DNA of 61,959 bases from a virus. Taxonomy: Duplodnaviria; Caudoviricetes. Location: positions 1-61,959 of IMG/VR virus record IMGVR_UViG_3300017716_002569. The stretch is one strand, 5' to 3'. A program made the translations under genes and the position numbers. Each line of letters begins with the position of its first letter. Position 1 is the stretch's first letter. The notes beneath the pieces are model-generated. The model saw only the letters and a program-made list of their open reading frames with translations, did not search any database and was not told where the DNA came from. Of the stretch, positions 1,365-61,804 are shown one piece after another.

Positions 1365-1754
1365 ATGAACTTCAAACAGTACAAAAGAAAAGGTTTATCT
1401 GAAATGATTTCAGTAACCGAATTTATTAACAATGGTGGTGACATGGTAAAGGTAAGCGTATCTAATCCTGACAAAGAACTTGCTAAAGAAGAACCAGCTA
1501 TTTTTGAACAGGGTTTTATCGCTCGTAACCCAAAGAATCACGAAGACCTATGGTATGTTGCTAAAAAGTATTTTGATGATAACCTTGAACCTGCCACAGC
1601 ATCACAAAGAGAACTAAAATCCGAAATGTGCGGCCCTCAACGCTGGGATGTAACTAAATTCGTTAATAGCAACAATATTGACGTTGTGGCTATCATTGGA
1701 GAAACCAGCGATTTAGGATTATGTGTGTACCAAATTTTCTATTACGATAAATAA
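1365..1754 (+). CDS. hypothetical protein
   Basis: 129-aa ORF with A-rich leader. Confidence 0.6.
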   Translation: MNFKQYKRKGLSEMISVTEFINNGGDMVKVSVSNPDKELAKEEPAIFEQGFIARNPKNHEDLWYVAKKYFDDNLEPATASQRELKSEMCGPQRWDVTKFVNSNNIDVVAIIGETSDLGLCVYQIFYYDK

Positions 1755-1761
1755 TACAATT

Positions 1762-2052
1762 ATGAACAACTTAGCAAAAAACACGGAACCAAGCAATGAA
1801 CCAGATTCAGAATTTAGATCACTGCTCAATGCATTAAGAACAGAAGCCAATGAGGCTAAAAACCTAACCAAAGCATGTGCTGAATTTATAGGGAAATTAA
1901 GCCCTATGTGTGAACAACCCGAAATTGACAAAGGCAAGCCACAGCCAATGGGTATTATCAGCGTATTTTGGGAAGAAGTCCAAACCTTAAGGGAGTCAAA
2001 CGAGAGAATGAGAGAAATCTTAAGCCACCTTCACAAAGTAATAGGAAGCTAA
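1762..2052 (+). CDS. hypothetical protein
   Basis: ATG at 1762 follows the upstream stop and AT-rich leader; preferred over 1723. Confidence 0.55.
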   Translation: MNNLAKNTEPSNEPDSEFRSLLNALRTEANEAKNLTKACAEFIGKLSPMCEQPEIDKGKPQPMGIISVFWEEVQTLRESNERMREILSHLHKVIGS

Positions 2053-2058
2053 AGCAAA

Positions 2059-3162
2059 ATGATAGACAGACGAATAATATTACAAGCAGGTATCAGGGAA
2101 ATTGATATTCCAAAGAAAACAAGGGAGTGGTTAGAATTTAGAAGGAACGGGATAGGGGCTTCTGAAATGGCAACCATCCTTGGGCTATCTCCTTATGCGC
2201 CAACTGTCACAGAACTGTGGCGTTACAAAGTTGGAATAGGCCAAGCAGTTGACATTAGAAACCAGCATGTATTATTTGGTGGGGAGCTGGAACCATTGAT
2301 AGTAAAAATGGCTAAGTATTGGGATGGTTCAGAAAATGGATATATTGATAACTACTACGACAATAGGCTTATCAGGGATATTCAGGCCGTGGATTCATAC
2401 ATTATTAATGACCAGTTTCCTCACATATTCGTTTCGCTAGATGCTTTCATCCCACAGGGCTGTGTTAGGCTTGACATAGATGGTGGTGACTTCACCGGAG
2501 AAGAATTGTGGATTGATCATCCGTTGGAATGTAAGAACATATCCGGTTATAATTCGCGCAAGTGGGTTTCTGGAATACCGATTATGTATTATGTTCAGCT
2601 GCAAACCCAAATGATAGCCCTTGGTGTTGATTATGGGGAACTAGCGGTGTTGGTTGATAACTCACAGTTTAGCGTTTATCCATTTCAGGTGAATGAAGTT
2701 TGGAGGCAGCGCATACTTGAAAAGTCAGAAGAGTTTTGGGATTCTGTTTTGCTGGGGCGAAAAGCCCTTGCTGCAGGTGATGAAGATATGTTGGCCTATT
2801 TGGAGCCACAGCCAAATGAAAGTGAAGCATACACAGAGTTCTATTCAGAAGAGTTCAAACGCAAGGATGCAATTGAAAAGGCCCTTGGAGGGGATGATGA
2901 AAAGGAGCTGTGCAATAAGGTCAAATTGTTGATGGAGTTTGAAGATGTGCTAGACGAAACCAAACAGCTATACAAAAACCGACTTACCAAGAGCATTGTT
3001 GATATTGGCTGTGAAAAACTAACATTCCCTAACAATGGATATATTAGATATGCTAAGAGGTCCAACTCTAAAAACTATAGCATTGATTTTAGGGGTTTCA
3101 AGCCTGATTATCCAGAAGAACTTGTTGAAATCTTCACAAAATCTGTTAGGAAATTAGTGTAA
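2059..3162 (+). CDS. YqaJ-like viral recombinase / lambda-type exonuclease
   Basis: 'EWLEFRRNGIGASEMATILGLSPY', 'SLDAF', 'LECK' and 'YYVQLQTQM' motifs; RecT lies downstream. Confidence 0.9.
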   Translation: MIDRRIILQAGIREIDIPKKTREWLEFRRNGIGASEMATILGLSPYAPTVTELWRYKVGIGQAVDIRNQHVLFGGELEPLIVKMAKYWDGSENGYIDNYYDNRLIRDIQAVDSYIINDQFPHIFVSLDAFIPQGCVRLDIDGGDFTGEELWIDHPLECKNISGYNSRKWVSGIPIMYYVQLQTQMIALGVDYGELAVLVDNSQFSVYPFQVNEVWRQRILEKSEEFWDSVLLGRKALAAGDEDMLAYLEPQPNESEAYTEFYSEEFKRKDAIEKALGGDDEKELCNKVKLLMEFEDVLDETKQLYKNRLTKSIVDIGCEKLTFPNNGYIRYAKRSNSKNYSIDFRGFKPDYPEELVEIFTKSVRKLV

Positions 3163-3205
3163 TTTATGTTTCCTTTGTTTACATATTATTAACGATTAGC
3201 GCAAA

Positions 3206-3469
3206 ATGATTATACAGCATCAAATAAAACCCTTACTACACGCAAGATGTGCGAAAATTGGGGTTAATAGCAATATTGCACAGGAGAAAAAGAAACTAGC
3301 AAAGGCCATGGGGCTTTCAGATGCATGGTTTCGTAGGCTGTGGAGTGATCCATATATGCCTATCAGCAAAGAGTACGAATTAAAGGCAATTGAGTATTTA
3401 GGAATTAAAGCAGAAGAATTATATGTTATCCTCAGAGAAAAAACCAAAAAGACCAAGACCTTGGCTTAG
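3206..3469 (+). CDS. small HTH (XRE/Cro-like) DNA-binding protein
   Basis: 'KKKLAKAMGLSDAWFRRL ... IEYLGIKAEELY' pattern. Confidence 0.55.
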   Translation: MIIQHQIKPLLHARCAKIGVNSNIAQEKKKLAKAMGLSDAWFRRLWSDPYMPISKEYELKAIEYLGIKAEELYVILREKTKKTKTLA

Positions 3470-3737
3470 GGAGATTGAATATACCAGAGCTGTTTTAAAG
3501 GATGGTAATTTGATTTTTGGTACTGAGGATGAAAACGGGGTATTTGTTCCATCTGAATCAGGGATTGACATTAAAACAGAAACTAAGAAGGGGTTTTTTG
3601 AGCATTGGGGTATAGATTACACAAGGCCAGACGTTACCTCTTCACAACTGGTTCAAATTACTGTGGCGTATATTGTGGATGCTACCACGGGAGAGGTTAT
3701 AAAAGTTGCTGATGTATCAGCTATTCGCTTCTTATGA
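3423..3737 (+). CDS. hypothetical protein (true start uncertain)
   Basis: ORF fills the gap between neighbours; stop overlaps the next ATG (ATGA). Confidence 0.5.
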   Translation: MLSSEKKPKRPRPWLREIEYTRAVLKDGNLIFGTEDENGVFVPSESGIDIKTETKKGFFEHWGIDYTRPDVTSSQLVQITVAYIVDATTGEVIKVADVSAIRFL

Positions 3738-4141
3738 CAAGATGGACCGCAAAAGCATTGAAGGAAAAAGGAGTAGTTTTACCTCCAAGGAAGAAATCTG
3801 CAATAAAAGCCACAGAGGCACCTGAAATTGGTGAAATGAAATGGGTATTGAAAGCACTAGGGTTAGCTTACGAATGTGAGTTTAAGTTTGTTCCTGAAAG
3901 AGATTTCAGAGCTGACTTATATATTCCTTCTCTTAATTTAATACTTGAATATGAAGGGTTATTCGCGGAAGGTAAAAACGGCACGGGTATGAGTAGGCAC
4001 ACAACACCAAAAGGATATACCAATGACTGTATTAAATACTTTCTTGCCAATGTGCATGGGTACAAAGTTTTGAGAGTAACAGCTATTAATTACAAAGAGC
4101 TATCGAATTATATAAAAATTTTACAAAATGAATCAGTTTAA
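3734..4141 (+). CDS. DUF559/Vsr-like PD-(D/E)XK endonuclease
   Basis: 'EFKF...RDFRADLY...LILEYEG...RH...GYTNDCIKY...GYKVLRVT' pattern. Confidence 0.75.
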   Translation: MTRWTAKALKEKGVVLPPRKKSAIKATEAPEIGEMKWVLKALGLAYECEFKFVPERDFRADLYIPSLNLILEYEGLFAEGKNGTGMSRHTTPKGYTNDCIKYFLANVHGYKVLRVTAINYKELSNYIKILQNESV

Positions 4142-4415
4142 ATTAACAGGCACTATCTTCAAATTTGTTGAGGATGAAATTGAGGTAGTTCACAACTATC
4201 AAAAAACAGTATTAGTATTAAAATGCGAGAATGGTTCAAGAACTATACAGCATGTTCCTATTGATTTCCCAAATGAAAAAAGGTCCTTAATTGGAGGCTT
4301 TAAAAATGGTGAATTGGTTGAGATTACATGTGTTCCTAAAGGCAGAATGAAGAATAAACAAGGCCGTGAGCTGTACTATGCAGCCTACGAAGCCACAGAA
4401 ATAACTAGAGTATAA
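4128..4415 (+). CDS. DUF3127-like OB-fold ssDNA-binding protein
   Basis: 'FKLTGTI...YQKTVLVL...VPIDF...GELVEI...KGR...YY' pattern; lies in the recombination module. Confidence 0.6.
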   Translation: MNQFKLTGTIFKFVEDEIEVVHNYQKTVLVLKCENGSRTIQHVPIDFPNEKRSLIGGFKNGELVEITCVPKGRMKNKQGRELYYAAYEATEITRV

Positions 4416-4420
4416 AGAAT

Positions 4421-5626
4421 ATGACAGAGCAACAAAACCAGAAAGAGACTAAAGCTCCCAAGCAGGAGTTATTAGTGCTCGATCCATTTCAACACCAAGA
4501 AGCGGAGTTGACTAAACTAGCCTCAGATTACACCAATTATGTTGTAACAGAGGACAACCTTAAGGAAGCAGAAGCCGCTAGGCTTAAAGTGTGGCGTATT
4601 AGGGTTAAAGAACTTGGAGCAGGTTTAAAGGAGCGACTTGCTAAAATCAAGGAGTTTAAAGAGGACCAAGAAACCAAGTATGAAAAGCTGTGCAACATTA
4701 TACAGCCAGTGGAAGAATCCCTTGAAAAGAAAATTGCATTGGTTAAAGCTGCCAAGGAAAAGCGTGAGCGTGAAGAGAAGGAGAAGGAGCAAGCAAGGCT
4801 ATCTGGCCACAGAACTAAGTTAGCAGACCTAACCAAGTTAGCTGTTAAAATTAATTCTATGGAATTGGAGGACCTTGAAAAAGTTGATACTGCTTGGGTT
4901 GATCAATACGATTCTCAGGAATTTAAAAATGAGTTCATTCAGGCTGTTAGTGCTGTGGTTTTGGCTAAAACTTCTCGCCAAGAATTGCTTGAATTGAGAA
5001 AGAAGGAGGCAGACAGAAAAGCCAAGGAAGAAGCAGAAAAAGCAGGAGCCAAGAAATATGATGATGATTTCAAACTCCTAACTGAAATGCTTACTAAGGT
5101 TAATTTAACCGAGGACTTAAAGGAGGTTCAGATATTTTTAGAAATAGGAACCAATGCAAAGCCAGAAGCATACGGCATAAATGCAACACAAGCACAAGGG
5201 GTATTGGCAGCATTGAAAATGCTTGCAGAAAATAGGGAAGATTTTTTGACCAAAAGAGCAGCCGAAAAAGTTACTGTGGTACCGAAAGAAACGCCACAGG
5301 TTGAACCAGAAGCAACACCAGACCTTCCTGCTAGTATGAGTGGGTATGTTCCAAATAGGGGAGCATTTGCTTCAGGTCCAATATCAACAGATAGGGATGT
5401 GTATTTTTCTGATATTCCTAAAGAACAGCCCACAGCTCCAAACATGGCAAACCATATCCCTGATATGGAAGAGCCAGAAGTAGTGCAAGCTAATTTTGAT
5501 GCTTCACTTGATGAATTTAACGTATTCAGCTACGAAACATACAAGGTAGCCCTTTCCAAAAATGTACCGGAGAAAGCAGCGAAATCAATTTTGAATTATT
5601 GTGAACACATGTTAAAAACCAAATAA
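4421..5626 (+). CDS. hypothetical coiled-coil protein (DUF1351-like context)
   Basis: 401-aa E/K-rich ORF immediately upstream of recT. Confidence 0.6.
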   Translation: MTEQQNQKETKAPKQELLVLDPFQHQEAELTKLASDYTNYVVTEDNLKEAEAARLKVWRIRVKELGAGLKERLAKIKEFKEDQETKYEKLCNIIQPVEESLEKKIALVKAAKEKREREEKEKEQARLSGHRTKLADLTKLAVKINSMELEDLEKVDTAWVDQYDSQEFKNEFIQAVSAVVLAKTSRQELLELRKKEADRKAKEEAEKAGAKKYDDDFKLLTEMLTKVNLTEDLKEVQIFLEIGTNAKPEAYGINATQAQGVLAALKMLAENREDFLTKRAAEKVTVVPKETPQVEPEATPDLPASMSGYVPNRGAFASGPISTDRDVYFSDIPKEQPTAPNMANHIPDMEEPEVVQANFDASLDEFNVFSYETYKVALSKNVPEKAAKSILNYCEHMLKTK

Positions 5627-5629
5627 ATT

Positions 5630-6721
5630 ATGGCAGCCGAGAGTTTAGAGAAAATTAAAAATCATGTTTTGGCCACGTTGCCAAACAAGTTAGAAAAGAA
5701 CAATTCATTTAAGATGGATGTTCAACGCGAATTAGGTTTCGCATTTCAGGCGTTTCAAGCTAGTGAATACATGCAGAAGGCCACGCCTGAGAGTATTATT
5801 AAAGCTGTGACAAATGTGGTCCTTACGGGCCTTACACTTAATCCCGTGCTACAACAAGCATGTTTGGTGCCACGGGCAAAAAATGGAGTAGTTGAGTGTT
5901 GTTTGGAACCAATGTACCAAGGATTAATTACCAAAATGATTGATACGGGGCAAGCCACAGACGTATATGCCCACGTTGTTTATTCAGGTGACAAGTTGGA
6001 AGTAATGATGGGTAGCAGCAAGAAATTGGAGCATGTTCCTTATTACTTCATGGGTATAACTGAAAAAAATAAAGGTGAGGCTATTGGTGTTTATGCTGTG
6101 GCTGTTCTTCCTAATGGTGATAAGAAATGGGAATTTGTACCTGCCGAGCGTATTCATGCAATTATGCAAACCTCAGAAAGCTACAAAAAATCAATTAAAG
6201 ATGGCAACAAGTCTAGTATATGGCTAGGAGCCCACAAGGATGAAATGTGGAAGAAAACAGCTATTAAGGCTCTCTTTAAAGTAATGCCCAAAAATGATTA
6301 CTCAGAAAGGGTTGCTAAGATTTTGGAGGTGGAGAATGAAACACAACAATTCATTGTGCCTGCAGAAATGCCACAGAAAACACTTATTGAATCAACGCCA
6401 AACAATCCAGCTGTGATAATTGATGAATCTAAGTTAAAGAAGAGCGATAACGTAAAGAAGAACGCTGACAAAACCATTCATAAGCTAGAGGACCTCAATA
6501 AAAAAGAGGAACAGAAACCAAATATAGCTCAAAATGCTGGTAACAAATACGGCATTGTAAATTCATTGAAGATTCAGGAAGTAGTAACCCAATTGAAGGA
6601 GCAGGATTTGTACGGGAAGTTAGAAAAGTGGGTTGAGCTTAATTCTGTGCATGAATCCATTGATGAATTTTTGATCAACGGAACGGAGGAAGATTTGAAC
6701 AACGCCCTTAATGCAATTTAA
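5630..6721 (+). CDS. recT: RecT family ssDNA-annealing recombinase
   Basis: 'GLTLNPVLQQACLVPR', 'MYQGLI', 'VVYSGD', 'GVYAVA' and 'EMWKKTAIK' motifs. Confidence 0.9.
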   Translation: MAAESLEKIKNHVLATLPNKLEKNNSFKMDVQRELGFAFQAFQASEYMQKATPESIIKAVTNVVLTGLTLNPVLQQACLVPRAKNGVVECCLEPMYQGLITKMIDTGQATDVYAHVVYSGDKLEVMMGSSKKLEHVPYYFMGITEKNKGEAIGVYAVAVLPNGDKKWEFVPAERIHAIMQTSESYKKSIKDGNKSSIWLGAHKDEMWKKTAIKALFKVMPKNDYSERVAKILEVENETQQFIVPAEMPQKTLIESTPNNPAVIIDESKLKKSDNVKKNADKTIHKLEDLNKKEEQKPNIAQNAGNKYGIVNSLKIQEVVTQLKEQDLYGKLEKWVELNSVHESIDEFLINGTEEDLNNALNAI

Positions 6722-6738
6722 CCTTAATTAAAAGTAAT

Positions 6739-6767
6739 AAAAAAGGCCACTTAATTGTGGCCTTTTT
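6739..6767. terminator. bidirectional intrinsic terminator
   Basis: AAAAAAGGCCAC-TTAATT-GTGGCCTTTTT between convergent operons. Confidence 0.85.
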
Positions 6768-6768
6768 G

Positions 6769-7185
6769 TTAAAATCTAATTGGTAGTTTTTTCAAATACA
6801 AGTAATAATCAATTTCTGTTAAACCTTCTCCTGATGGATGTGGGTCGTGAGCTGGATATGTTTTACTTGTTACAATACAATGTCGCGTTCCTCTTGGTGA
6901 TACGCCACGGGAAATAAAATAGTCTCGCTGTGGCAAATCTTCCACGTTACGGGTTTTAATAATAATACTGCTATGCTTATTACATAGCCAAATGTTCAAA
7001 ACGTCTAACCACATTGGATCATCCTTTTTGCTGTCTCCTGGCATATAGAAAACCTCAATGTTGGGTACCATTTCAGGTTGTTTATCTAAAATGGATGCTA
7101 TGCAAGTGGCAAGGCAATTACCATAGGTAAGCCTTTCGCCTTTGCTTGACTTGGTGCCGAATTTGGTTTGGATATTCTTTTTCAT
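6769..7185 (-). CDS. hypothetical protein, possible papain-like cysteine hydrolase fold
   Basis: 'GNCLATCIASIL' ... 'RHCIV' ... 'HDPHP' give a Cys-His-Asp arrangement. Confidence 0.45.
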   Translation of the reverse strand: MKKNIQTKFGTKSSKGERLTYGNCLATCIASILDKQPEMVPNIEVFYMPGDSKKDDPMWLDVLNIWLCNKHSSIIIKTRNVEDLPQRDYFISRGVSPRGTRHCIVTSKTYPAHDPHPSGEGLTEIDYYLYLKKLPIRF

Positions 7186-7186
7186 G

Positions 7187-7411
7187 TTACTTATTTTTGA
7201 TGCCTAAAATTCTTCTGTACTCAGGTTGGATGGTAATTACCCTATTACTCTTCCTTACGTCTATTCCGGTAATCGGTCCAAACTCTTCTGCCATTACAAC
7301 CATTTCTTCCTCATAAATCTTATCAATCACCTTTTGGCTGTGGCGTTCTTTCAATGCTACCTTCTCTGTGATGGTGCACTGATTCCATTTAAGTTCTATT
7401 CTAGTGCTCAT
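7187..7411 (-). CDS. hypothetical protein
   Basis: 74-aa ORF coupled to its neighbours. Confidence 0.55.
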   Translation of the reverse strand: MSTRIELKWNQCTITEKVALKERHSQKVIDKIYEEEMVVMAEEFGPITGIDVRKSNRVITIQPEYRRILGIKNK

Positions 7412-7688
7412 ACATTAAATAGGGGATTAAGACTGATAAAATTCCAAATAATCCGCTTAGAACCAATGTTCCAATAGCATAACACATAATTACTGTGTCC
7501 TTCCATGAAGATTCATCATCCACACGGGTTTCTTGTGTTTTAGTTTCCATTTTTAGATATTTTAAAGTGATTGTTATGTTTGGGTTTTCGTTTGCTTCTG
7601 TGTACCAAAACCACTGATTCCAATCCATGCATGTTCTTGGAATTACGCTGTGGCTTAAATTAAGTTTCAGTAAATCTTCGTTCTTCAT
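7401..7688 (-). CDS. small membrane protein
   Basis: C-terminal hydrophobic segment 'VIMCYAIGTLVLSGLFGILSVLIPYL'. Confidence 0.5.
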   Translation of the reverse strand: MKNEDLLKLNLSHSVIPRTCMDWNQWFWYTEANENPNITITLKYLKMETKTQETRVDDESSWKDTVIMCYAIGTLVLSGLFGILSVLIPYLMYEH

Positions 7689-7773
7689 TTTGCATCAATT
7701 AAATATTTGAAAATAATAACTAAGATAACTACAATTAAATAGATTAGTGCTGGTTTATTGTTTTTTTTCATGG

Positions 7774-9123
7774 TTAAAAATTTGATCTAACTAATTCTTC
7801 AGCCATTCGTGTAACTACAATTGGCACGACTGAATTGCCAATAAACTTTTTTTGCTGTGTTTGGTTGCCTTTTAATATGTATCTTCTAGGGAATCCCTGA
7901 ACTCTTAGTAGTTCATCAATTCTAAACATTCTCATTGTGATATCATATATGCCATGCATGGCCATGAACTGCTTAATTTTCTTGACCATTTCTGAATCTG
8001 TTTCATAAATCTGAATACCAAATACTCCTTTTTCTAATTGAACCAAATAAAGAGGTGCTTTATCCATCCTAGCTATAATTGTGGAACAAGGTTGGTCCAC
8101 AGAACCAGCATTAGTATTAAACCATTGAGGGTTTACAATGAAGCATGTAACCAAATTTAATTTAGGACTTCCCGTTATGCTGCCTGATGGCGTTTCAATA
8201 GAAGAATTTGTTTCTTGCCCAAAATCTCTGTAAATAAATCTTGGTTGTATTATTCCTGCGCTATCTTTTGTCCTTAGCGTTGGTCCTGGACTATCTATTG
8301 AGGTACAATTGTGTCCATTCCCATAATAGGATGCTAAAAAATCAGCCTCTCCCTTTCCTGATACAAATTTTAACAACCCAGAATAAATCCTTTTCAATGT
8401 GTTTTCAGAAAGTGGCTTCGGCCTATCAAATATACTTCTGCCTTTATCTTCCAAGTCTAAAACTTCTCTCACTGCTTTCCACGGGCTCAATAACAAATCC
8501 CCGTTTTTTGAATGTGTAGCCACGGGCCAAGAAATTGGCAAACCTTTTTTAGCAAAATATGCAAAGAATCTTTTGCGGCTGGTGTATGCACCAAAGTCAG
8601 CAGAGTTTAAAGCCCTCCAATCATATTCATAACCAACACCAAGAGCTTTCATTTCTTCAACCCATCGTAAATAATCAGAGCCTTGTTTTCTTGAAATAGG
8701 TTTATCGTGTTCATCAAGTGGACCCCAGCTCATAAATTCAACTACATTTTCTATACCTACATAGTCAGGGTTAAGACTTTCAACATACCACGGCATGAAG
8801 TCAGCTAAACTTCTTGAATCTGCATCCCGTGGCTTGCCTCCTTTGGCCTTAGAAAAGTTGGTACACTCTAGGCTTGCCCATAGCAATAATTTTGCTTTGG
8901 GATATTTCAATTGTGCTTCCAATGCTATTACTTGTAGCTGCTCCATTTGAATGTGCCTTATATCTTCTACAAAATGGATAACATCAGGATGATTAGCTTC
9001 GTGACTTGCAATAGCAATTTCATCGTGATTAATTGCTGCTATCACTTTACAATCTTGTGCACTTTCAAATCCGGTGGAAACACCACCTGCACCTGCGAAT
9101 AAATCTATAATTAGTAACTTCAT
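7774..9123 (-). CDS. dcm: DNA (cytosine-5)-methyltransferase
   Basis: Motif I 'IDLFAGAGG', motif IV variant 'SLECTNFS', motif VI 'IENV', 'RKRFF', motif X 'IGNSV'; ATG at 9123 preferred. Confidence 0.93.
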   Translation of the reverse strand: MKLLIIDLFAGAGGVSTGFESAQDCKVIAAINHDEIAIASHEANHPDVIHFVEDIRHIQMEQLQVIALEAQLKYPKAKLLLWASLECTNFSKAKGGKPRDADSRSLADFMPWYVESLNPDYVGIENVVEFMSWGPLDEHDKPISRKQGSDYLRWVEEMKALGVGYEYDWRALNSADFGAYTSRKRFFAYFAKKGLPISWPVATHSKNGDLLLSPWKAVREVLDLEDKGRSIFDRPKPLSENTLKRIYSGLLKFVSGKGEADFLASYYGNGHNCTSIDSPGPTLRTKDSAGIIQPRFIYRDFGQETNSSIETPSGSITGSPKLNLVTCFIVNPQWFNTNAGSVDQPCSTIIARMDKAPLYLVQLEKGVFGIQIYETDSEMVKKIKQFMAMHGIYDITMRMFRIDELLRVQGFPRRYILKGNQTQQKKFIGNSVVPIVVTRMAEELVRSNF

Positions 9124-9126
9124 TGT

Positions 9127-9174
9127 TTCTGATATGGGAATCGAACCCACGCCACAGAGGCATCCAATACAGAA
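9127..9174 (-). ncRNA. minimal tRNA-like element (T-arm, short hairpin, closing stem)
   Basis: Minus strand TTCTGTATTGGAT-GCCTCTGTGGC-GTGGG TTCGATT CCCAT-ATCAGAA; canonical T-loop. Confidence 0.45.
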
Positions 9175-9225
9175 AAAGCGGGGGAATTAGGAAACACGAC
9201 TAACCTAACTCCCTTTATCCGCTTT
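9173..9225 (-). terminator. intrinsic terminator hairpin whose loop is antisense to the leader motif
   Basis: AAAGCGG..GGGAGTTAGG-TTAGTCGTGTTT-CCTAATTCCC-CCGCTTTTT; the G.U pair forms only on the minus strand. Confidence 0.7.
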
Positions 9226-9227
9226 CA

Positions 9228-9509
9228 TTATTTTAAGTACACGGTATAGACAAGTCTAAAACCTTGTGCATGTACGGGCTCAATTCGCACATAGCTATTG
9301 AACACGCTTAATTTTTTCATCCTGAATGTTCCAATTATTTTGATGTCATTTTGTACCAACCAAGAATTAAAGTCAATGTAATATCGGTCTGCTTGTATGT
9401 CGCACCAATCTTTATAAATCCTTTTAATCTGTGGCCTTAGTTCTCTTGAAATAGTGGCTTGTATTTCTAGTGGTAATTGGTTAAATTCAATAGTCTGTCC
9501 TGATTCCAT
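9228..9509 (-). CDS. hypothetical protein
   Basis: 93-aa ORF, last gene before the terminator hairpin. Confidence 0.6.
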   Translation of the reverse strand: MESGQTIEFNQLPLEIQATISRELRPQIKRIYKDWCDIQADRYYIDFNSWLVQNDIKIIGTFRMKKLSVFNSYVRIEPVHAQGFRLVYTVYLK

Positions 9510-9511
9510 TT

Positions 9512-9823
9512 TTATAGGTTAATTAAAGTTAGTGCAACAAAGTTCAAATCGTTTAGGCAGTTGTCAACCCTTTCAGATATGTAGAGGTTGTATTTAGAGC
9601 ATCCTAGCTTCTTTCTAGTGGCTAAATAGCACTCTTCAGCATCTTTTATCAATACCCATTTACGAAGTGAATTAGACCACTTGTAAAGGTTATTTTCCAG
9701 AGTTAGCATAAACCTCTCCCCGTGTTCATTCTTGACGTAGAACTTCACCATTTTGTCCTTTAGTTCTTCGGCCAAAATAGTCACGGGTACTCCGTTTGGT
9801 AATATATATCCTTTTCCTTTCAT
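9512..9823 (-). CDS. hypothetical protein
   Basis: 103-aa ORF starting 18 nt after the predicted twister cleavage site. Confidence 0.6.
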   Translation of the reverse strand: MKGKGYILPNGVPVTILAEELKDKMVKFYVKNEHGERFMLTLENNLYKWSNSLRKWVLIKDAEECYLATRKKLGCSKYNLYISERVDNCLNDLNFVALTLINL

Positions 9824-9827
9824 GCTT

Positions 9828-9892
9828 TTAGCAGTTAGTTTACAGCCCGTGGGCTGTCCTCACTATTTATCCTGACTTGGAACAGGTGCTAA
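9828..9892 (-). ncRNA. twister ribozyme, type P3 (A)
   Basis: TTAGCA|CCTG TTCC AAGT CAGG|ATAAA|TAGT|GAGGA|CAGCC CACG GGCTG|T^AA|ACTA|AC|TGCTAA. P1-P4 all pair; pseudoknots TCC:GGA and AC:GT; predicted cut 9842/9841. Confidence 0.9.
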
Positions 9893-10291
9893 TATGTGCT
9901 CATTAATAAATTGAACTATTAAATCACAAGTCATTTCTGTTTTTTTAGATAAATCGCCACAGACCAATGATATTATTGGTTTATCCTCTTCCAATACCCT
10001 ATAAATTTGGTAGCTTATGCCTTTTATTGCTACCACATACCCCTGCTCTTCAATTCTCCTAATAACTGGTATCAAATAGTTAAAATCGGTATCAAATGGG
10101 TACTTCACAGCGTTTGTAAATCTACCCGTAAATGTAAGGGCTAATCCATTCCAAAGGTGAGCTAGTTCTCCTATTGTTTTGGCGTATTTATTGCCATTGT
10201 AAATAGGGTTAAAAACATCGTGTTGGTAGTCTATAACTTCATAACCCATAAACTTTGCAATGGTCTGTGTAATTAACAAATCTTTTTCCAT
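9863..10291 (-). CDS. hypothetical phage protein
   Basis: ATG at 10291; 'IAKFMGY...FDTDFNYLIPVIRRIE' pattern; 3' end overlaps twister A. Confidence 0.6.
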   Translation of the reverse strand: MEKDLLITQTIAKFMGYEVIDYQHDVFNPIYNGNKYAKTIGELAHLWNGLALTFTGRFTNAVKYPFDTDFNYLIPVIRRIEEQGYVVAIKGISYQIYRVLEEDKPIISLVCGDLSKKTEMTCDLIVQFINEHILAPVPSQDK

Positions 10292-10295
10292 GATA

Positions 10296-11066
10296 TTATA
10301 TATTATTGGTTTGACAAAATGTATCAAAATAAGCCTCTTCTTGTGCTTCTATCATGCCAAGGGCTGCATCAGGTTCTTGCGTAAATTTACAGGTGGTTTC
10401 TGAGGTCATGGAATAGCATTTTTTAAGGTCATAGTTGTAAAGCATTTCTTCTTCTTTCATTATCCTAACTCCCGTTTCTGCGCATTTGCTGTTAAAAATT
10501 GCCTTAATGACTTTCTGTTTATGGTCAGCGGTGGGAATTTGGCTTCCTGGTGCTGGGGTAAAACTGCTCTTTGCAGGCACATCAAACTCAATTTTGTAAA
10601 AGTCCTCTATTAATCCACAGCTCACATTAGGATTGTCAACGATTCTAAAATTATGTGCACCTTTTGGGAATGATTGATTAACTAGGATTCTGTAAAGCAC
10701 TTCGCTTTTTTCGTGGTGTCTGTTCCATTTTTCAGGCTCTTGATAGCTCCAATTAGTAAGCATTTGCTGCCTTGCTTCCTCGTCAATCAATCTGTGGCAA
10801 AACAAATGTTTAGTTTGTGGCAACCCTTCAATTCTGTTGGTTAGCTCGTACATATCAATCATGCCATTGAAAGAGCCGTATTGATACTTATTTGTAATCG
10901 CTGCCACTTCTTTGGTGGTTGCCCCTAGTGTCCATTCAACATCCACAGAATCACCTCCTGAATAGTTTTTAGAGGTTATTCTAAATGTAATGTCGGGGAA
11001 CTTTGTTTTTAGCTCAACCCTAATTGCTTGTGCGCATTGCGCAACTCTCGAAAGTTGTTTTTTCAT
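10296..11066 (-). CDS. LPD29 (large polyvalent protein-associated domain 29) protein
   Basis: 'AQAIRVELKTKFP...YSGGDSVDVEW...KYQYGSFNGMIDMY'; ATG at 11066 preceded by ACACGAC. Confidence 0.75.
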   Translation of the reverse strand: MKKQLSRVAQCAQAIRVELKTKFPDITFRITSKNYSGGDSVDVEWTLGATTKEVAAITNKYQYGSFNGMIDMYELTNRIEGLPQTKHLFCHRLIDEEARQQMLTNWSYQEPEKWNRHHEKSEVLYRILVNQSFPKGAHNFRIVDNPNVSCGLIEDFYKIEFDVPAKSSFTPAPGSQIPTADHKQKVIKAIFNSKCAETGVRIMKEEEMLYNYDLKKCYSMTSETTCKFTQEPDAALGMIEAQEEAYFDTFCQTNNI

Positions 11067-11073
11067 TGTCGTG

Positions 11074-11307
11074 TTACTTGGTTTTATAGTTTGTGATAGC
11101 TTGATTGAATAATTCCTTTGCATCTGTACCTTCTGAATGGCGTAACCTGATTTCATACTTGTACTTTGTGTCGGGATGCCATACTAAGGTTTCATCCTTT
11201 GCCATGTTTAGATTAACGAAGTATTTTACGCTAAAATCTTCGTGTGAGGCATCAAATAATGATTCCATTATTTCACCTTCTACTACTTTTTTAAATGTTG
11301 TTTCCAT
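11074..11307 (-). CDS. hypothetical protein
   Basis: 77-aa ORF starting 16 nt after the predicted hammerhead cleavage site. Confidence 0.6.
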   Translation of the reverse strand: METTFKKVVEGEIMESLFDASHEDFSVKYFVNLNMAKDETLVWHPDTKYKYEIRLRHSEGTDAKELFNQAITNYKTK

Positions 11308-11317
11308 GTCGTATTTT

Positions 11318-11371
11318 GATTAAGACCACCCTTGCGGATGGTTTCGGCTATTTAAGCCTCGTCAGTTAATC
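11318..11371 (-). ncRNA. hammerhead ribozyme, type I (HH1)
   Basis: GATTAA|CTGACGA|GGCT TAAAT AGCC|GAAA|CCATCC GCAA GGGTGG|TC^|TTAATC. Complete catalytic core, GUC site; predicted cut 11324/11323. Confidence 0.95.
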
Positions 11372-12073
11372 TTCTATTTCAATCAGGATTCCACCATTTA
11401 CTACAAATTCATAGTCTAAATCTGCCCATTCAGTATAATAGCTATTGCACCCCTCGTCACCTCCTTCTTTTTCGTACAAGTCATTGAAATCTTTATATCC
11501 TAGTGTCCGTGCGTGTTGGTCGGCTAACTCTTGGGTGCTTGCGTATGTTCCATCACTATCAAAATACCATCCTTCATCCATGCCGTTATCAGTAAATGAA
11601 CATTTACGCATGAACTTTTCACCTTCTTTGCCTTTTACAAATCTGTGGGCTGTGTAAAACTCTTCCAATGTATCAAACCAATCCGCAGTTTCTCCCCAAA
11701 TTTCATCCTCATATTTTGCAGTGAATTTAGTTGTAAGGTCATAGGCAAGCTCCCACGCTCCACCCATGCCCATTTGTTGATGTCTTAGGTGCGCTATTGA
11801 TTCCTCATTTTCCCTATCAATATCATCCTGAACGAATGATATAATTTCGTGGTGAGTTTCTGCCCATTCACGTTCCACGGGAACACGGCCAACTTCAATT
11901 CCAAACTCTGCGCCATCCTCTTGGGCGGCTGTGAGGTCTTCATATTCCTCAATCAATGATTCTGAACCATCAGGATGTAGGCGGTAAACCTCAAAGCATC
12001 CAGATACGAATACTTCCTTTGCTTTCTCGGTAACAATTAACCAAGTAAAGCCTTTTGTTGTTTTTGTGTTCAT
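11366..12073 (-). CDS. hypothetical acidic protein
   Basis: 235-aa, very D/E-rich; its stop codon lies in stem I of HH1. Confidence 0.65.
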   Translation of the reverse strand: MNTKTTKGFTWLIVTEKAKEVFVSGCFEVYRLHPDGSESLIEEYEDLTAAQEDGAEFGIEVGRVPVEREWAETHHEIISFVQDDIDRENEESIAHLRHQQMGMGGAWELAYDLTTKFTAKYEDEIWGETADWFDTLEEFYTAHRFVKGKEGEKFMRKCSFTDNGMDEGWYFDSDGTYASTQELADQHARTLGYKDFNDLYEKEGGDEGCNSYYTEWADLDYEFVVNGGILIEIED

Positions 12074-12489
12074 TATTCTGCAATTAGTTGTTTAAGTAAA
12101 TTAAGGTCAATTTCAGCCCAAAACTCGTCATTGGTGTGCTCGCCATAGCATTGGATGGTTACACCTTCATGTGAGAAGAATTTAGTGGTATAAGAGCGTA
12201 ATTTGTTTTCGGGCATGTTATCAAGTTCACTATCTTCTAAATCTACCAAATGAGCCCCATTAGTATTAAATTCGTTTTCATCTTCCATTCTGTCAGTGTT
12301 TATGAATGTTGGCGATGAATCTAATGTTTGGATGCAAAACAAAGAATGTTCTGCAATAATTGGGGCAAACTTAGCTTGCTCTTCAACTATCCTTTTACAT
12401 TTTTCAATTGGAATGAATAGCGCATCTACGCTATCAAAATCGCTGTTTGTTCTTGCAGGGAATAATATTCCCTTGTTTGTTGTACTCAT
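12073..12489 (-). CDS. hypothetical acidic protein
   Basis: 138-aa ORF with ACACGAC leader, downstream of twister B. Confidence 0.65.
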   Translation of the reverse strand: MSTTNKGILFPARTNSDFDSVDALFIPIEKCKRIVEEQAKFAPIIAEHSLFCIQTLDSSPTFINTDRMEDENEFNTNGAHLVDLEDSELDNMPENKLRSYTTKFFSHEGVTIQCYGEHTNDEFWAEIDLNLLKQLIAE

Positions 12490-12508
12490 TTTGTCGTGTA
12501 TTATTTAT

Positions 12509-12576
12509 TTAGTGTGTTTGTTTACGGGCATTTCTGCCCGTGCTCACAATTTAGGGGACTTGCAACCCTACACTAA
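12509..12576 (-). ncRNA. twister ribozyme, type P3 (B)
   Basis: TTAGTGT|AGGG TTGC AAGT C CCCT|AAA|TTGT|GAGCA|CGGGCA GAAA TGCCCG|T^AA|ACAA|AC|ACACTAA. Pseudoknots TGC:GCA and AC:GT; predicted cut 12524/12523. Confidence 0.9.
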
Positions 12577-13311
12577 TTGTTTGAGTACCATTATTTGTTT
12601 GATTACATTAAAAAATTGAGGGCTATTAAAAAACTCATTTATATCAGTAAATTGATTAGGTTTAAGTGTTTTTATATTGTGGGTTTTGTTGGTATAAACA
12701 GATACCTCTTCAAGCAATTCGTAATAGCCTTCTTTAAAGTAAAACATTACTATATCATCTAGTTGAATATTCCATGATGTATCTGTATTAAATTTCGGAT
12801 TTATTGTTACACGGAACATTGGCAAATCCTTTTTTAACAAGTCCAAATCAGCATACAATTTTGCTTTAAGATTGGCAGCATGTTGTTGTCTTTTTTGTTC
12901 TGCTGTGGCATCCCTTTCTACTTCAATTTTGATTTTATCCAATAGACTGGGTTTTTTCGGCTCTAATAGGTCTATCCTATGAATAACATATTGCACGGCC
13001 TCAGATGGCACGGAATTAAGCATATACTCCGTAGCTTCTTCATCCGATTCCATTTCATCAAAGAAAGATGCAAATAATAGGTTTGTGAGTGTTGGTGTTT
13101 CTTCAACGCTTCTAGCAAGTAAATCCAATACTTCCATAAATGCCTCTCTGTGGGCTGATGCAAGTATTACCCAATCATTGTTTTGTCTTCTTATCCTCCC
13201 ATTTGGATAGTAAATAGGGCCTGAACCCGTTTGTTCCCAATAGTAATTTTGTGGGTTGTCAATGCCTGATGCATCAAAAGGCAAATGTTTGATTTCTTCA
13301 AATTTTTTCAT
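12568..13311 (-). CDS. hypothetical protein
   Basis: 247-aa ORF flanked by twisters C and B; ACACGAC leader. Confidence 0.65.
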   Translation of the reverse strand: MKKFEEIKHLPFDASGIDNPQNYYWEQTGSGPIYYPNGRIRRQNNDWVILASAHREAFMEVLDLLARSVEETPTLTNLLFASFFDEMESDEEATEYMLNSVPSEAVQYVIHRIDLLEPKKPSLLDKIKIEVERDATAEQKRQQHAANLKAKLYADLDLLKKDLPMFRVTINPKFNTDTSWNIQLDDIVMFYFKEGYYELLEEVSVYTNKTHNIKTLKPNQFTDINEFFNSPQFFNVIKQIMVLKQLV

Positions 13312-13319
13312 GTTGTCGT

Positions 13320-13390
13320 GTTGTTAGTTAGTTTATAGGGCATTGCTGCCCTATCATCACTATTTGTGCGGACTTTGAACCGCTAACCAC
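13320..13390 (-). ncRNA. twister ribozyme, type P3 (C)
   Basis: GTGGTTA|GCGG TTCA AAGT CCGC|ACAAA|TAGT|GATGA|TAGGGCA GCAA TGCCCTA|T^AA|ACTA|AC|TAACAAC. Pseudoknots TCA:TGA and AC:GT; predicted cut 13335/13334. Confidence 0.88.
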
Positions 13391-13930: not shown

Positions 13931-13934
13931 GATA

Positions 13935-14120
13935 TTAGTTTTTATTGAATTGAGAAATAAAAAGCCACAGAATAGAAACGGCAGCACCAACAAGGGCGCA
14001 AATAAGGGATTGCATGATAATCGGGTGTTTAGATGATAGCTCTACAAATATGAGAAGGAAGAATCCAGAAATGCCTGAAATAAGGCCAACACGCATAAAG
14101 AACCAATTGTGCTTTTTCAT
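13935..14120 (-). CDS. small two-TM membrane protein
   Basis: ATG at 14120 overlaps the upstream stop; two hydrophobic segments. Confidence 0.55.
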   Translation of the reverse strand: MKKHNWFFMRVGLISGISGFFLLIFVELSSKHPIIMQSLICALVGAAVSILWLFISQFNKN

Positions 14121-14593: not shown

Positions 14594-14609
14594 TGTCGTG
14601 TTTTTAATT

Positions 14610-14665
14610 GGTTAATACAGCCATGTTTCAGGCTGTTTCAAGCATTTAGCTATCGTCAGTTAACC
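14610..14665 (-). ncRNA. hammerhead ribozyme, type I (HH2)
   Basis: GGTTAA|CTGACGA|TAGC TAAAT GCTT|GAAA|CAGCC TGAAACAT GGCTG|TA^|TTAACC. Full core, GUA site; U.U at the base of stem II; predicted cut 14616/14615. Confidence 0.85.
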
Positions 14666-59176: not shown

Positions 59177-59196
59177 CATTATTAAAACTAAGTGTT

Positions 59197-59916
59197 ATGT
59201 CATTTCAAGCTGAAAGTTATATCCAATCAACACCAAATTACAATATTATTGTTGGTAAATTCTGTTACCCTTTGCCTTTTGCACCAGGAGGAACTATTTC
59301 ACGGGTTGCTAGTAGGCCAAAACCGTTAATTGTTGGTACCGATGTATCAATTACAGTAGATGGTGTTGATTTTAATATAACATCATTAACTGGTGATCAC
59401 TTTCTTAATTTTGGTGTTAATCCTGGTGATGTAATTGTATTTAACACACCACAAGTTAGTGGGCAATATGCTGTATCATCGGTAACTTCTGCCACAGTAA
59501 TAAAAGTTAATGGTCCTGCAGTAGCAATTACAAGTGGAACAATATACTTTCAATCCAAGCCACAGCCAATAGAAGGTGGAAATGGAGCTAATTTTAATAA
59601 AGCAAAAAGAGGTGATTATTTAGTGGTAATGAGCGATTCATTAACACCAACAGTACAAGTAGCAAAAATATCTGAGGTAACAGATGCAACACATTTAACA
59701 GTTATAGGTGGTTTTGTTGGTGATATAGACGATTTACCATTTATGATATGTCGCAATCAATTATTGGGAGTATCAATAAATTGTGTTGGAGGTGGAGTTG
59801 TAATGGGCCAAAATGTTGATGCAGGAGATGTTTTAACATTTTATCAAGATTCTGGGCTAGAACCTGTTTACGGAGATAGCGGAACAAGCGAATTTAAAAT
59901 TTTAATTCAAAAATAA
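59197..59916 (+). CDS. structural / tail-associated protein
   Basis: Beta-rich, V/G/T-rich 239-aa ORF. Confidence 0.55.
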   Translation: MSFQAESYIQSTPNYNIIVGKFCYPLPFAPGGTISRVASRPKPLIVGTDVSITVDGVDFNITSLTGDHFLNFGVNPGDVIVFNTPQVSGQYAVSSVTSATVIKVNGPAVAITSGTIYFQSKPQPIEGGNGANFNKAKRGDYLVVMSDSLTPTVQVAKISEVTDATHLTVIGGFVGDIDDLPFMICRNQLLGVSINCVGGGVVMGQNVDAGDVLTFYQDSGLEPVYGDSGTSEFKILIQK

Positions 59917-60263
59917 TGTTTGGCTTTAATAGCAATAACAGACAATTTGGATGGTATGTCAATGTAAGTTCTGGCAAGCCTAAATGCATAATTGCACCTA
60001 GAATTAGCGGTCCCACTAGTTTAAATAGTACGCTATTTTGCAATACAGGCACTTGGATAGGCGACCCAAATGAGTTTGTTTTCACCTATCAATGGAACCG
60101 AAATGGTGTTCCTATTGTAGGGGCAACAAACAACACTTATGTAACTGTGCTAGCAGATAGCTTGGCAAATATAACATGTACGGTTACTGCAAGTAATTGT
60201 CATGTATATATGTTAGACTTCAGCAAACCAAAAAATTCAGGATATTATACTTTCTTTACTTAA
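59916..60263 (+). CDS. Ig-like domain protein
   Basis: 'FTYQWNRNGVPIVGATNNTY...ITCTVTASN' motif. Confidence 0.7.
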   Translation: MFGFNSNNRQFGWYVNVSSGKPKCIIAPRISGPTSLNSTLFCNTGTWIGDPNEFVFTYQWNRNGVPIVGATNNTYVTVLADSLANITCTVTASNCHVYMLDFSKPKNSGYYTFFT

Positions 60264-60277
60264 AAAAATACAACAAA

Positions 60278-61804
60278 ATGGGAAATAATGTACAATTAAA
60301 AGATGCGAATAGCGTAACTTTTACAACCAAAACCACAGAAACAACAGGGGTACATACACCTCACTATAACGTAGATGCTTTACCTGTTGCATTTAATGCA
60401 GGAGCTTCTAGTGCAACTACTCAAAGAACAGTTTCAGCATCAGACGACCCAGGAGTAGTTCAGCTACAAAATATAAGCACAGATTTAGGCGCACCTGATG
60501 ATGCAGCAGCTTCAAGTGATACAGGTATTTTTGGTATCATTGCTTTCATTAAAAGAGCGATGCAAAATTGGACATCATTGCTTAATAGAATACCAACTTT
60601 GGGTAATAAAACTGCTGCTAATAGCCTTGCAATTACACTATCGGTTGAAACTGCAAGTGGTACTATTACAACACAAAACTTAGTACCTAATGGAGCAGCA
60701 ACTGCTGGAAGTGCAGTTGAAATTACACTGTTTGGTATGAGCACTCTAGCCATTCAGGTTACAGGAACTTACACAGGTGCGCTCAGTATTCAAGTTACCA
60801 ACGATGATGTTCGTTGGGAAACTATTACTGCTGCATCAATGTTAAATGCAATAACAGGTGTACCAATTGCTACAATTCCATCAGCAGCTATTGGAGTATT
60901 TCAAATTGATTTAAGTGGTTTTCTCAAAGCAAGGATAACAGGACTTGCAGCAATGACTGGTACTGCAACTATAACATTAAGAGCAGTTAGTGGAACAGCA
61001 CTTGTAACTATTGACAATCCATTGCCAACAGGAGCTAATACAATTGGCGGTGTAAACGTTATAACAGGCCAAACTGCTCATAGTTCAGCGGTTACAGGTA
61101 ATCCTGTTAGAGTTGGTGGTAAGGTTGTACCAACCACAATAGCTACACAGGATGCTACATTAATTGCAGGCGATGCTGCGGATGCACCTATTTCTACAGG
61201 TGGGCAATCAATTGTAAAACAAAATGCAACTGCGGAATTGGATTTCAATTTTAACTTTTCTTGTTTGGCATCAGTAGTTACAGTTCAACAACTAATACCT
61301 GCAAGCGGAACTGCATCAATAAGAAACTATTTAGCTAATTTGAAATTAGCAACAGATACGCTTGGTGCAGGTGGAGTAGCTTGGATATTAGATGGTGCTT
61401 TAACTGTTTCGTCAATAGCAACAGGAACAGGCTTATGCACTACATCGCCAGCGCACGATTTAAAGATTGGTGATTCAATAGTGTTTACTGCCTTAACAGG
61501 AGGCACAGGGGTATCAGCTAACACAGTGTATTATGTTACTTCGGTAGGCTCTACAACTACTTTTAACTTTGCATTAACTATTGGAGGTGCAAATGTAGTG
61601 CCTTCGGCAGCAGCAACAGCAGGAACTTGTTATAGAATTTTGTATCAGCAACATTTCAGAACAACAGGAGTAGCGTCACCAACAGTGATATATTTTCCTC
61701 AACCATTGAGAAGTAATGGTAACGCAGCGATGAGCTTGCTCATTCCTGTGTCAATGACAAGCGGAACTATCTATATTTCATCATCAGGTTATAGAGGGTT
61801 CTAA
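60278..61804 (+). CDS. tail fibre / spike-like protein
   Basis: T/A/G-rich; 'HDLKIGDSIVFT...GVSANTVYYV' module shared with 58402; ATG at 60278. Confidence 0.6.
   Translation: MGNNVQLKDANSVTFTTKTTETTGVHTPHYNVDALPVAFNAGASSATTQRTVSASDDPGVVQLQNISTDLGAPDDAAASSDTGIFGIIAFIKRAMQNWTSLLNRIPTLGNKTAANSLAITLSVETASGTITTQNLVPNGAATAGSAVEITLFGMSTLAIQVTGTYTGALSIQVTNDDVRWETITAASMLNAITGVPIATIPSAAIGVFQIDLSGFLKARITGLAAMTGTATITLRAVSGTALVTIDNPLPTGANTIGGVNVITGQTAHSSAVTGNPVRVGGKVVPTTIATQDATLIAGDAADAPISTGGQSIVKQNATAELDFNFNFSCLASVVTVQQLIPASGTASIRNYLANLKLATDTLGAGGVAWILDGALTVSSIATGTGLCTTSPAHDLKIGDSIVFTALTGGTGVSANTVYYVTSVGSTTTFNFALTIGGANVVPSAAATAGTCYRILYQQHFRTTGVASPTVIYFPQPLRSNGNAAMSLLIPVSMTSGTIYISSSGYRGF

Follow-up and report, generated by a model that had tools for sequence, protein, structure and literature searches.

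Hyper-abundant short words, such as Chi, the DNA uptake sequences and the highly iterated palindrome HIP1, are rare, and each of them has revealed an aspect of DNA biology. The uptake sequences of Pasteurellaceae (uptake signal sequences, USS) and Neisseria (DNA uptake sequences, DUS) are asymmetric, occur equally in both orientations at about one per kb or denser, lie in genes and alter the encoded peptides; they owe their abundance to biased uptake by competent cells and saturate the chromosome of the host. The function of HIP1 is still unexplained in the accounts cited here (PMC4390886, PMC5861425). Chi protects DNA from RecBCD/AddAB, with less DNA lost where sites are more numerous, and it is over-represented in some phage genomes with a median observed/expected ratio of 2.3 (Bobay et al. 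2013, PMC3784561). Here, we present an analysis of the hexamer CCACAG and its longer form GCCACAG, which are dispersed at high density over a phage chromosome, IMG/VR virus record IMGVR_UViG_3300017716_002569 (Duplodnaviria; Caudoviricetes). The full 61,959 nucleotides of this record are referred to as the window.

Enrichment of the motif

On the plus strand of the window CCACAG occurs 96 times and its complement CTGTGG 46 times, giving a total of 142 sites in 61,959 bp, whereas base composition predicts 14.6 for both strands together. Shuffles preserving dinucleotides (n=100) gave 21.29 ± 4.33 sites, none of them attaining 142. The longer form GCCACAG accounts for 75 of the 142 sites, and the variant CCACGG is found 13 times, with 11 occurrences of CCGTGG (24 in total). 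An initial annotation of this DNA had described CCAC(A/G)G as over-represented on both strands and was accurate in its details: its nine example coordinates are all true sites, its tally of ~45 hits for the first 16.3 kb agrees exactly with ours (34 CCACAG/CTGTGG and 11 CCACGG/CCGTGG in 1-16,300) and the ~36% GC that it assumed is near the measured G+C content of 37.2%.

Coding-aware expectations were obtained for the 62 called genes, comprising ~95% of the sequence, from three types of shuffle with 200 shuffles each. These genes hold 139 CCACAG sites, compared to 26.2 ± 4.6 when synonymous codons were shuffled inside each gene, a procedure that keeps both proteins and codon usage, 22.7 ± 4.7 when synonymous codons were shuffled genome-wide and 17.4 ± 4.2 when codon order was shuffled. 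The largest value in any of these shuffles was 39, and the enrichment over the three nulls is 5- to 8-fold. For GCCACAG, 73 sites in genes stand against 7.9-8.0 expected (9.1x), and for CCACGGG 16 against 1.3-1.4. No hexamer rivals CCACAG, the next independent one being CACGGG, which is itself a variant of the same site. Loss of the enrichment under shuffling that preserves amino acids and codons had been named in the initial annotation as the outcome that would speak against it; the enrichment survives such shuffles and this outcome was therefore not seen. The enrichment is a matter of neither composition nor codon usage.

The word has come close to filling the places open to it. Of 299 peptide contexts in which it could be written by synonymous change, 139 (46%) carry CCACAG, compared to 22.5 expected, and 34 of the 49 Pro-Gln pairs are encoded as CCA-CAG. 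Shuffled proteins contain fewer such dipeptides (31 ± 5) than the 49 present here, and the pressure for CCACAG has therefore altered protein sequence too.

Some other words are enriched more weakly under the synonymous null, namely AGCTCA/TGAGCT (51 vs 23.5), ACCAAG/CTTGGT (75 vs 37.8) and CACCTGC/GCAGGTG (23 vs 10.4).

Sequence requirements of the site

Flanking information is confined to position -1, where G precedes 53% of the CCACAG sites. To grade the requirement along the resulting heptamer, each position of GCCACAG was substituted in turn and the observed number of variants compared with the expected one. The outer positions are tolerant, as the remaining bases at position 1 keep a 3-4x excess and G or T at position 2 keeps 3.6-3.9x. 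At position 3 all substitutions are depleted, with 8 observed against 26.7 expected (P ~2e-5; GCAACAG 0.3, GCGACAG 0, GCTACAG 0.4). A purine suffices at positions 4 and 6, where G gives 4.6x (GCCGCAG, 11 in genes) and 9.7x (GCCACGG), respectively, while positions 5 and 7 are strict and lose all enrichment upon substitution. With R denoting either purine, GCCRCRG is found 93 times against 11.8 expected and CCRCRG 180 times against 42.4. The hexamer CCACGG is raised mostly where a further G follows (CCACGGG), and the core CACAG is raised 2.9x across all contexts. Among neighbour words TCACAG stands at 1.8x, CCATAG at 0.9x, CCACAA at 0.8 and CTACAG at 0.49x. The site is thus best written as a graded gcCRCRG, asymmetric and non-palindromic, with GCCACAG and GCCACGG as its best forms. 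A requirement graded in this way is what binding and recognition sites usually show.

Orientation and placement

The word occurs in all three reading frames and in both orientations, in line with the initial annotation, with CCACAG counts per frame of 34/51/12 in sense and 6/29/7 in antisense. The resulting sense:antisense ratio of 97:42 matches the prediction from codon usage (null 18.1:8.0). Both orientations are raised in genes of either strand: plus-strand genes carry 88 sense sites against 14.2 expected and 35 antisense sites against 5.0, and minus-strand genes 9 against 2.0 and 7 against 0.9. Additionally, the 2,709 bases of non-coding DNA hold three sites where 0.53 are expected. As the sites use all frames, are raised to the same degree in both orientations and are in excess outside genes too, explanations at the level of peptides, codon pairs or RNA are ruled out, which points to the word being recognized as DNA whatever its direction.

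The initial annotation had also called for the positional and strand distribution to be examined, and the sites proved to be spread uniformly. Neighbouring sites are co-oriented in 79 of 141 pairs (79.2 expected), and the gaps are Poisson-like, with a mean of 417 bp and a coefficient of variation of 0.88, compared to 0.99 ± 0.08 for random placement. The longest gap spans 2,500 bp over the regulatory region (16.2-18.7 kb) and is not exceptional, and nearly all genes of useful size carry 2-4 sites per kb. Across the record the sites were found to be neither paired nor periodically spaced nor placed locally. With neighbour orientation random and gaps Poisson-like, each site therefore acts singly and independently of the others, without local or regulatory placement.

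The ends of the record had been described as sparse, and as a count this stands, there being no sites in 1-1593 and 60339-61959. The left end means little, however, because the null for its first three genes is just 0.11. The right end is different, since the last gene (60197-61804) is the one sizeable gene without motif enrichment, an outcome with P ~0.009 if the gene were enriched ~6x as the others are. Its 535-aa protein has no match in PHROGs, in phages (tblastn) or in Pfam. The missing enrichment suggests that this gene may have been acquired recently.

The graded requirement together with the uniform, orientation-independent coverage would also suit a binding site of some other chromosome-wide protein, such as a DNA-condensing, packaging-associated, priming or replication factor. 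We regard this as improbable, as no candidate gene was recognised among the scanned frames, 26 of 52 of which have no Pfam match, and to our knowledge there is no precedent for a 7-bp site this dense in such roles.

Related phages and candidate hosts

A megablast search of 20000-30000 against phage records gave no match, and neither did the terminase as a single query in IMG/VR, genome contigs and Joint Genome Institute (JGI) metagenomes. A protein search turned up a single relative at 91% identity, besides many in the 40-49% range. A search with a terminase alignment yielded 80 IMG/VR loci (34-44% identity) and 11 genome-contig loci, which served as controls only. In the 44 kin loci of at least 12 kb CCACAG density is 0.05-0.61 per kb, compared to 2.29 per kb in the phage. 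The synonymous-shuffle analysis was further run on 44 related or methylase-sharing loci of at least 15 kb, after removal of shorter loci and of the stretch belonging to the window itself (L081). None of these has a comparable word, the strongest hexamer reaching a z-score of 7.5 against 21.4 in the phage, and the phage motif would still stand at ~12 if the record were cut to 20 kb. The seven loci encoding C5-cytosine methylases 44-62% identical to that of the phage likewise have no CCACAG enrichment (0.17-0.48 sites per kb).

Under a first-order Markov null, hexamers containing CCGG appeared 3-5x enriched in many relatives (L002-L099) and in a Bacteroidota chromosome, G199 (L100-L112), suggesting a family-wide habit of enriched CCGG-containing or palindromic hexamers. 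As the CCGG excess is present in the chromosome too and mostly disappears under synonymous shuffles (z at most 7.5), this candidate was rejected as an artefact of the null.

A Bacteroidota host is likely for the phage, judging from the kinship of its terminase, whose nearest cultured relatives are Flavobacterium, Cellulophaga and Maribacter phages (26-31% identity), and from the scarcity of Shine-Dalgarno-like words, which stand at -20 to -3 in just seven of the 62 called genes. We therefore examined 401 Bacteroidota genomes drawn evenly over the phylum, a sample outside which the true host may lie. In these genomes GCCACAG reaches at most ~220 per Mb, the phage itself carrying 1,210 per Mb, and CCACGGG is nowhere specifically above its reversed-word control. 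The highest density among genomes whose count was at least 5x the reversed-word control was that of G199, which is not enriched under Markov models: 260 kb hold 47 GCCACAG, compared to 31.1 expected at first order and 52.2 at third order, and the hexamer ranks 498th of 2,061 there. In Bacteroidota GCCACAG seemed skewed by strand (nine plus-strand places in a row), but this was an artefact of listing, as a fuller listing was mixed.

As far as phages and genomes were sampled, the word is thus private to this phage lineage. A literature search, with supplementary tables outside its scope, found no description of CCACAG as a bacterial or phage signal; the papers listed were eukaryotic or eukaryote-virus RNA work, a primer sequence and irrelevant items. 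The papers retrieved on Bacteroidota Chi named no sequence either.

Avoidance of restriction-type words

The same phage avoids many other words. Under the synonymous-shuffle null for genes in 19-61804, 19 of the 64 palindromic hexamers never occur and many others hardly do, including AAGCTT (1 observed vs 27.9 expected), GAATTC (1 vs 24.6), AACGTT (1 vs 18.1), AGATCT (0 vs 15.1), CATATG (0 vs 13.7) and GTATAC (0 vs 13.8). The tetramers GATC and TCGA are reduced to 0.34x and 0.38x. Asymmetric words resembling Type IIS/IIG targets are depleted as well (CTGGAG 2 vs 23.9, GAGGAG 1 vs 22.7, CTGAAG 8 vs 37.6), as are GACGC (3 vs 33.9), GAGTC (12 vs 42.0), CCCGG (0 vs 9.6) and ACCGT (10 vs 59.6). Word usage in this phage is strongly moulded by nuclease pressure, and a defence-related reading of the one word that is strongly enriched is therefore natural. 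The avoided palindromes GAATTC, ATCGAT, CATATG and CGTACG are listed among the methylated motifs of freshwater Flavobacterium columnare in a preprint (10.1101/2025.10.01.679924), an overlap that fits the suspected kind of host without identifying the host.

Avoidance on this scale raises the question of whether the enriched word is a side effect of it, or of composition, codon usage or dipeptide usage. The sense:antisense ratio does equal the codon-usage prediction, but the observed count exceeds every null 5- to 8-fold, no coding-aware shuffle exceeded 39, no other hexamer comes near and the 44 other loci stay at z 7.5 or below against 21.4. We consider such a side effect very improbable.

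Candidate readers and modification

Several phage proteins could read or mark the word (Table 1), and sequence does not single out one of them as the reader. They include a C5-cytosine DNA methyltransferase, a polyvalent 4516-aa protein carrying two methylase domains and a helicase, and a PAPS-reductase-like protein as a candidate DNA modifier. In the polyvalent protein, Pfam domains are limited to aa 1580-3262, and the first 1,299 aa and last 865 aa have no PADLOC or NCBIfam family. Its PADLOC matches are mad2, DrmD and ZorD, and Pfam Eco57I scores 28.7 bits (cut-off 25.3) at aa 2052-2125. A structure model of the gamma-class methylase domain (predicted local distance difference test, pLDDT, 82) has HsdM, M.TaqI and BpuSI as best folds, and as the fold search matched the catalytic domain only, it says nothing on specificity. 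Searches with the gamma-class region found neither a close relative in IMG/VR nor a sequence match in PDB. Homologues of the methylase-helicase region are labelled just as N12-class adenine methylase or helicase, and such labels do not inform on specificity. The PAPS-reductase-like protein has SspD (3.8e-14), BrxP (7.2e-14) and DndC (3.8e-07) as its nearest defence models, and no phosphorothioation partner genes for it were recognised in the record. Its gene directly follows that of DnaB.

These four candidate modifiers (the C5-methylase, the two methylase domains and the PAPS-reductase-like protein) permit a reading in which the word is the target of a phage-encoded DNA-modifying enzyme, with dense modification selected as self-marking or shielding. 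The word resembles restriction-modification targets that are asymmetric, 6-7 bp long and degenerate for purines at some positions, but neither of its adenines is invariant (GCCACGG 9.7x, GCCGCAG 4.6x), and with G tolerated at either adenine a single N6-adenine target is unlikely. Orientation independence and privacy to the phage are as expected of a phage-carried factor, yet the homologues of the methylase at 44-62% identity belong to seven phages without the motif, and we know of no case in which selection has raised the count of a methylase's own sites. The modelled gamma-class domain would fold like HsdM, M.TaqI and BpuSI, whereas the labels of its polyvalent homologues are silent on specificity. 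The N6-methyladenine (6mA) motif ACRCAG/CTGYGT of L. paracasei Zhang, as reported in PMC10164179, has the same core CRCAG; some anti-restriction methylases of mobile elements are, however, described as promiscuous, acting in an SAY context (Fomenkov et al. 2020, PMC7736820). Further, the heavy avoidance of restriction sites argues that the phage DNA is not broadly shielded by modification. On balance we find a modification target somewhat unlikely.

The initial annotation had envisaged a selected or mechanistically generated site, and had suggested, besides a Chi-like signal and a protein-binding site, a methylase target amplified by very-short-patch repair, with a Dcm and a Vsr-like nuclease both encoded. 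A signal at the DNA level beyond composition and codons is indeed present, and so is the Dcm-type enzyme, the C5-cytosine methylase of Table 1. The Vsr-like nuclease could not be recovered: Vsr (PF03852), searched in all six frames of the entire record, gave no matches at E<=1, and no Vsr match was found in the 52 reading frames scanned against Pfam. Very-short-patch repair would specifically deplete T-for-C variants. Such T-specific depletion of neighbour words was not seen, as A, G and T are all low at position 3 (0.3, 0 and 0.4) and T variants elsewhere are not depleted. Without a Vsr and without T-specific depletion the proposed repair route is therefore unsupported, and the seven methylase-sharing phages are unenriched.

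More broadly, the word might be a functionless by-product of methylase-tied biased repair, either by very-short-patch repair or by a ratchet like that proposed for HIP words, in which methyl-directed mismatch repair would generate and retain sites. The encoded C5-methylase and the value of 0.49x for CTACAG are in line with this, while the missing Vsr domain and the unspecific depletion at position 3 speak against it. In cyanobacteria HIP words accompany core-recognising methylases and their one-off variants differ mostly at outer positions (Elhai 2015, PMC4390886); here, similarly, the core CACAG is in excess whatever its context and outer positions 1 and 2 are tolerant, but the word is not palindromic. 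The ratchet has been published for HIP words (PMC4390886) and is a model rather than a demonstrated mechanism, and conservation of HIP1 was reported to speak for selection and not for biased repair (Xu et al. 2018, PMC5861425). We hold biased repair to be an unlikely origin of the word.

A proposed Chi-like protection signal

Tentatively, we favour the reading that gcCRCRG is a selected, dispersed, Chi-like protection signal, read on the DNA by a DNA-tracking enzyme. It is suggested by the DNA-level enrichment, the orientation independence, the graded requirement and the absence from related phages and sampled host genomes, together with the standing of Chi as the sole class of over-represented asymmetric phage word given as established in PMC3784561. 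Selection on the DNA itself, rather than repair bias or selection via proteins or RNA, would keep the word dense over the whole phage chromosome, and each copy would function alone and in either orientation. A helicase-nuclease or defence enzyme tracking along the DNA, either a host enzyme of the AddAB/RecBCD type or a phage-borne one, would upon entering phage DNA reach a site after no more than a few hundred bases, to be attenuated or redirected there, the site acting as a 'do not degrade' mark. Every added site would confer a small independent benefit, and such additive benefits would account for the near-saturation. Known Chi words are G/T-rich, and the G-rich strand of the present site, CYGYGGC, is loosely similar.

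Several points weigh against this reading. Chi works in one orientation only, whereas no preference is seen here, which is compatible with a Chi-like role only if both ends, or permuted ends, of the DNA are at risk. Orientation-dependent placement of the Chi type is likewise absent (~6.3x vs ~6.6x by strand; neighbours co-oriented in 79 of 141 pairs vs 79.2), and we know of no Chi in phages at this density or at 46% occupancy. The candidate readers in the phage are several and cannot be told apart on sequence grounds. For a host Chi, none of the 401 Bacteroidota genomes, a sample that may not include the true host, nears the density in the phage. Finally, RecT and an exonuclease are encoded by the phage itself, and recombinase-encoding lambdoid phages tend to be without Chi, while abundant Chi in lambdoid phages, as described in the same survey, clusters in one region (PMC3784561), whereas the present sites are spread uniformly.

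The word might instead be an identity code owned by the phage and read by its own machinery, for example by the 4516-aa methylase-helicase protein if this is carried in the virion. Such a code would set phage DNA off from host and competitor DNA and spare it degradation or defence, while DNA without the word at such density would not be spared. This version is doubtful; if true, the phage would own a counterpart to the discrimination of self from non-self that is based on Chi. Should the word protect DNA in either manner, this would amount to counter-defence of a new kind, and the word could serve in practice as a tag that stabilises DNA in such hosts.

Genome content and variants

The features of the window are collected in Table 1. 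PHROGs named three of the 26 frames without a Pfam match, as terminase, portal and a primosomal/replisome-organizer-like protein. Two adjoining GroES (Cpn10)-like genes lie at 22896-23944 (+), the second of which is a weak match (Pfam 0.0018, PHROG co-chaperonin 1.7e-4). The regions upstream of gene starts are A-rich, in Bacteroidota style.

Table 1. Motif sites, genes and protein domains of the window, with their positions and the matches on which names are based.
Feature	Position	Strand	Details
Viral record	1-61959		One contig, 61,959 bp; linear class; estimated completeness 85%
CCACAG/CTGTGG	1594..60338	both	142 dispersed copies; ~1 per 436 bp
CCACGG/CCGTGG	2387..49706	both	24 copies, 17 of them CCACGGG
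Phage recombination module	2059..6721	+	YqaJ-like exonuclease and RecT; bears on the Chi-like reading
YqaJ-like exonuclease	2059-3162	+	Pfam YqaJ 1.4e-14
RecT	5630-6721	+	Pfam 4.3e-25
C5-cytosine DNA methyltransferase, 458 aa	7774..9150	-	Pfam DNA_methylase 2.6e-30; TIGR00675 2.1e-26; candidate reader
PAPS-reductase-like protein, 279 aa	21753..22592	+	Pfam PAPS_reduct 9.7e-23; phrog_424; candidate DNA modifier
Polyvalent protein, 4516 aa	44748..58298	+	Two methylase domains and a helicase; candidate reader
Beta-class N6/N4 methylase domain	aa 1580-1647 of 4516-aa protein		CcrM/RsrI-like; Pfam
Gamma-class N6-adenine methylase domain	about aa 1970-2165 of 4516-aa protein		Pfam Eco57I; PADLOC mad2
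ResIII/SNF2-type helicase	aa 2698-3262 of 4516-aa protein		DrmD/ZorD-like
535-aa gene without enrichment	60197..61804	+	1 site vs null 1.11
LPD29-domain protein and RadC			Encoded by the phage
DnaB			Encoded by the phage
Large terminase and portal			Encoded; named via PHROGs
1,684-aa protein			Immunoglobulin (Ig)-like and carboxypeptidase-regulatory-like domains

The phage record or near-identical variants of it are present in freshwater metagenome runs from several studies. One run (X3) holds a variant that is ~98% identical, with 347 substitutions over ~20 kb, while three others (X4, X5 and X8) hold short pieces only. Among the 40 substitutions listed for the variant, none falls inside a motif site and none creates one, with ~0.9 expected by chance in the better-listed stretch, so that the comparison carries no statistical power. 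The same variant has 1,071 additional letters at 29542-29584, and another stretch of ~597 letters replaces 33232-33831, a pattern that suggests mosaic exchange in the structural module.

Comparison with known systems

Like Chi, the phage word is short and asymmetric, occurs in all frames far beyond composition and is suited to per-site protection from a helicase-nuclease (PMC3784561). It differs from Chi in having no orientation preference and no regional concentration, in sitting beside the phage's own recombinase, in its much higher density and fold enrichment (5-9x, compared to the median of 2.3x given for Chi in phages; PMC3784561), and in having no matching enrichment in the 401 sampled candidate host genomes. 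With HIP1 and the alternate iterated palindromes of cyanobacteria it shares hyper-abundance inside genes and in all frames, to the point of shaping codon choice; HIP words are described as having one-off variants that differ at outer positions and as being correlated with DNA methylases (PMC4390886, PMC5861425). Unlike them, the word described here is non-palindromic, resides in a phage rather than a cell, is enriched 5-9x instead of 15-300x and has Poisson-like spacing without a period.

The likeness to USS and DUS lies in the asymmetry of the word, its presence in both orientations and inside genes, and its effect on peptide content; in contrast to those, its carrier is a phage, and no sampled genome (401) holds the word at such density. 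Targets of Type IIG, Type IIL and bacteriophage exclusion (BREX)-type systems are normally avoided by phages, as CTGAAG, CTGGAG and GAGGAG are here, whereas the present word is enriched and has no invariant adenine. ACRCAG of L. paracasei Zhang is reportedly the target of the BREX protein PglX. In form the word resembles such targets, which are 6-7 bp long, non-palindromic and purine-degenerate, and it has the core CRCAG in common with ACRCAG (PMC10164179).

Hyper-abundant short words are thus known as a kind, and what is new is one without a host counterpart in the sample that is asymmetric, independent of orientation and near saturation in a phage. How and why iterated words arise and are kept is much easier to study in a small phage with a handful of candidate readers than in the chromosome of a cyanobacterium.

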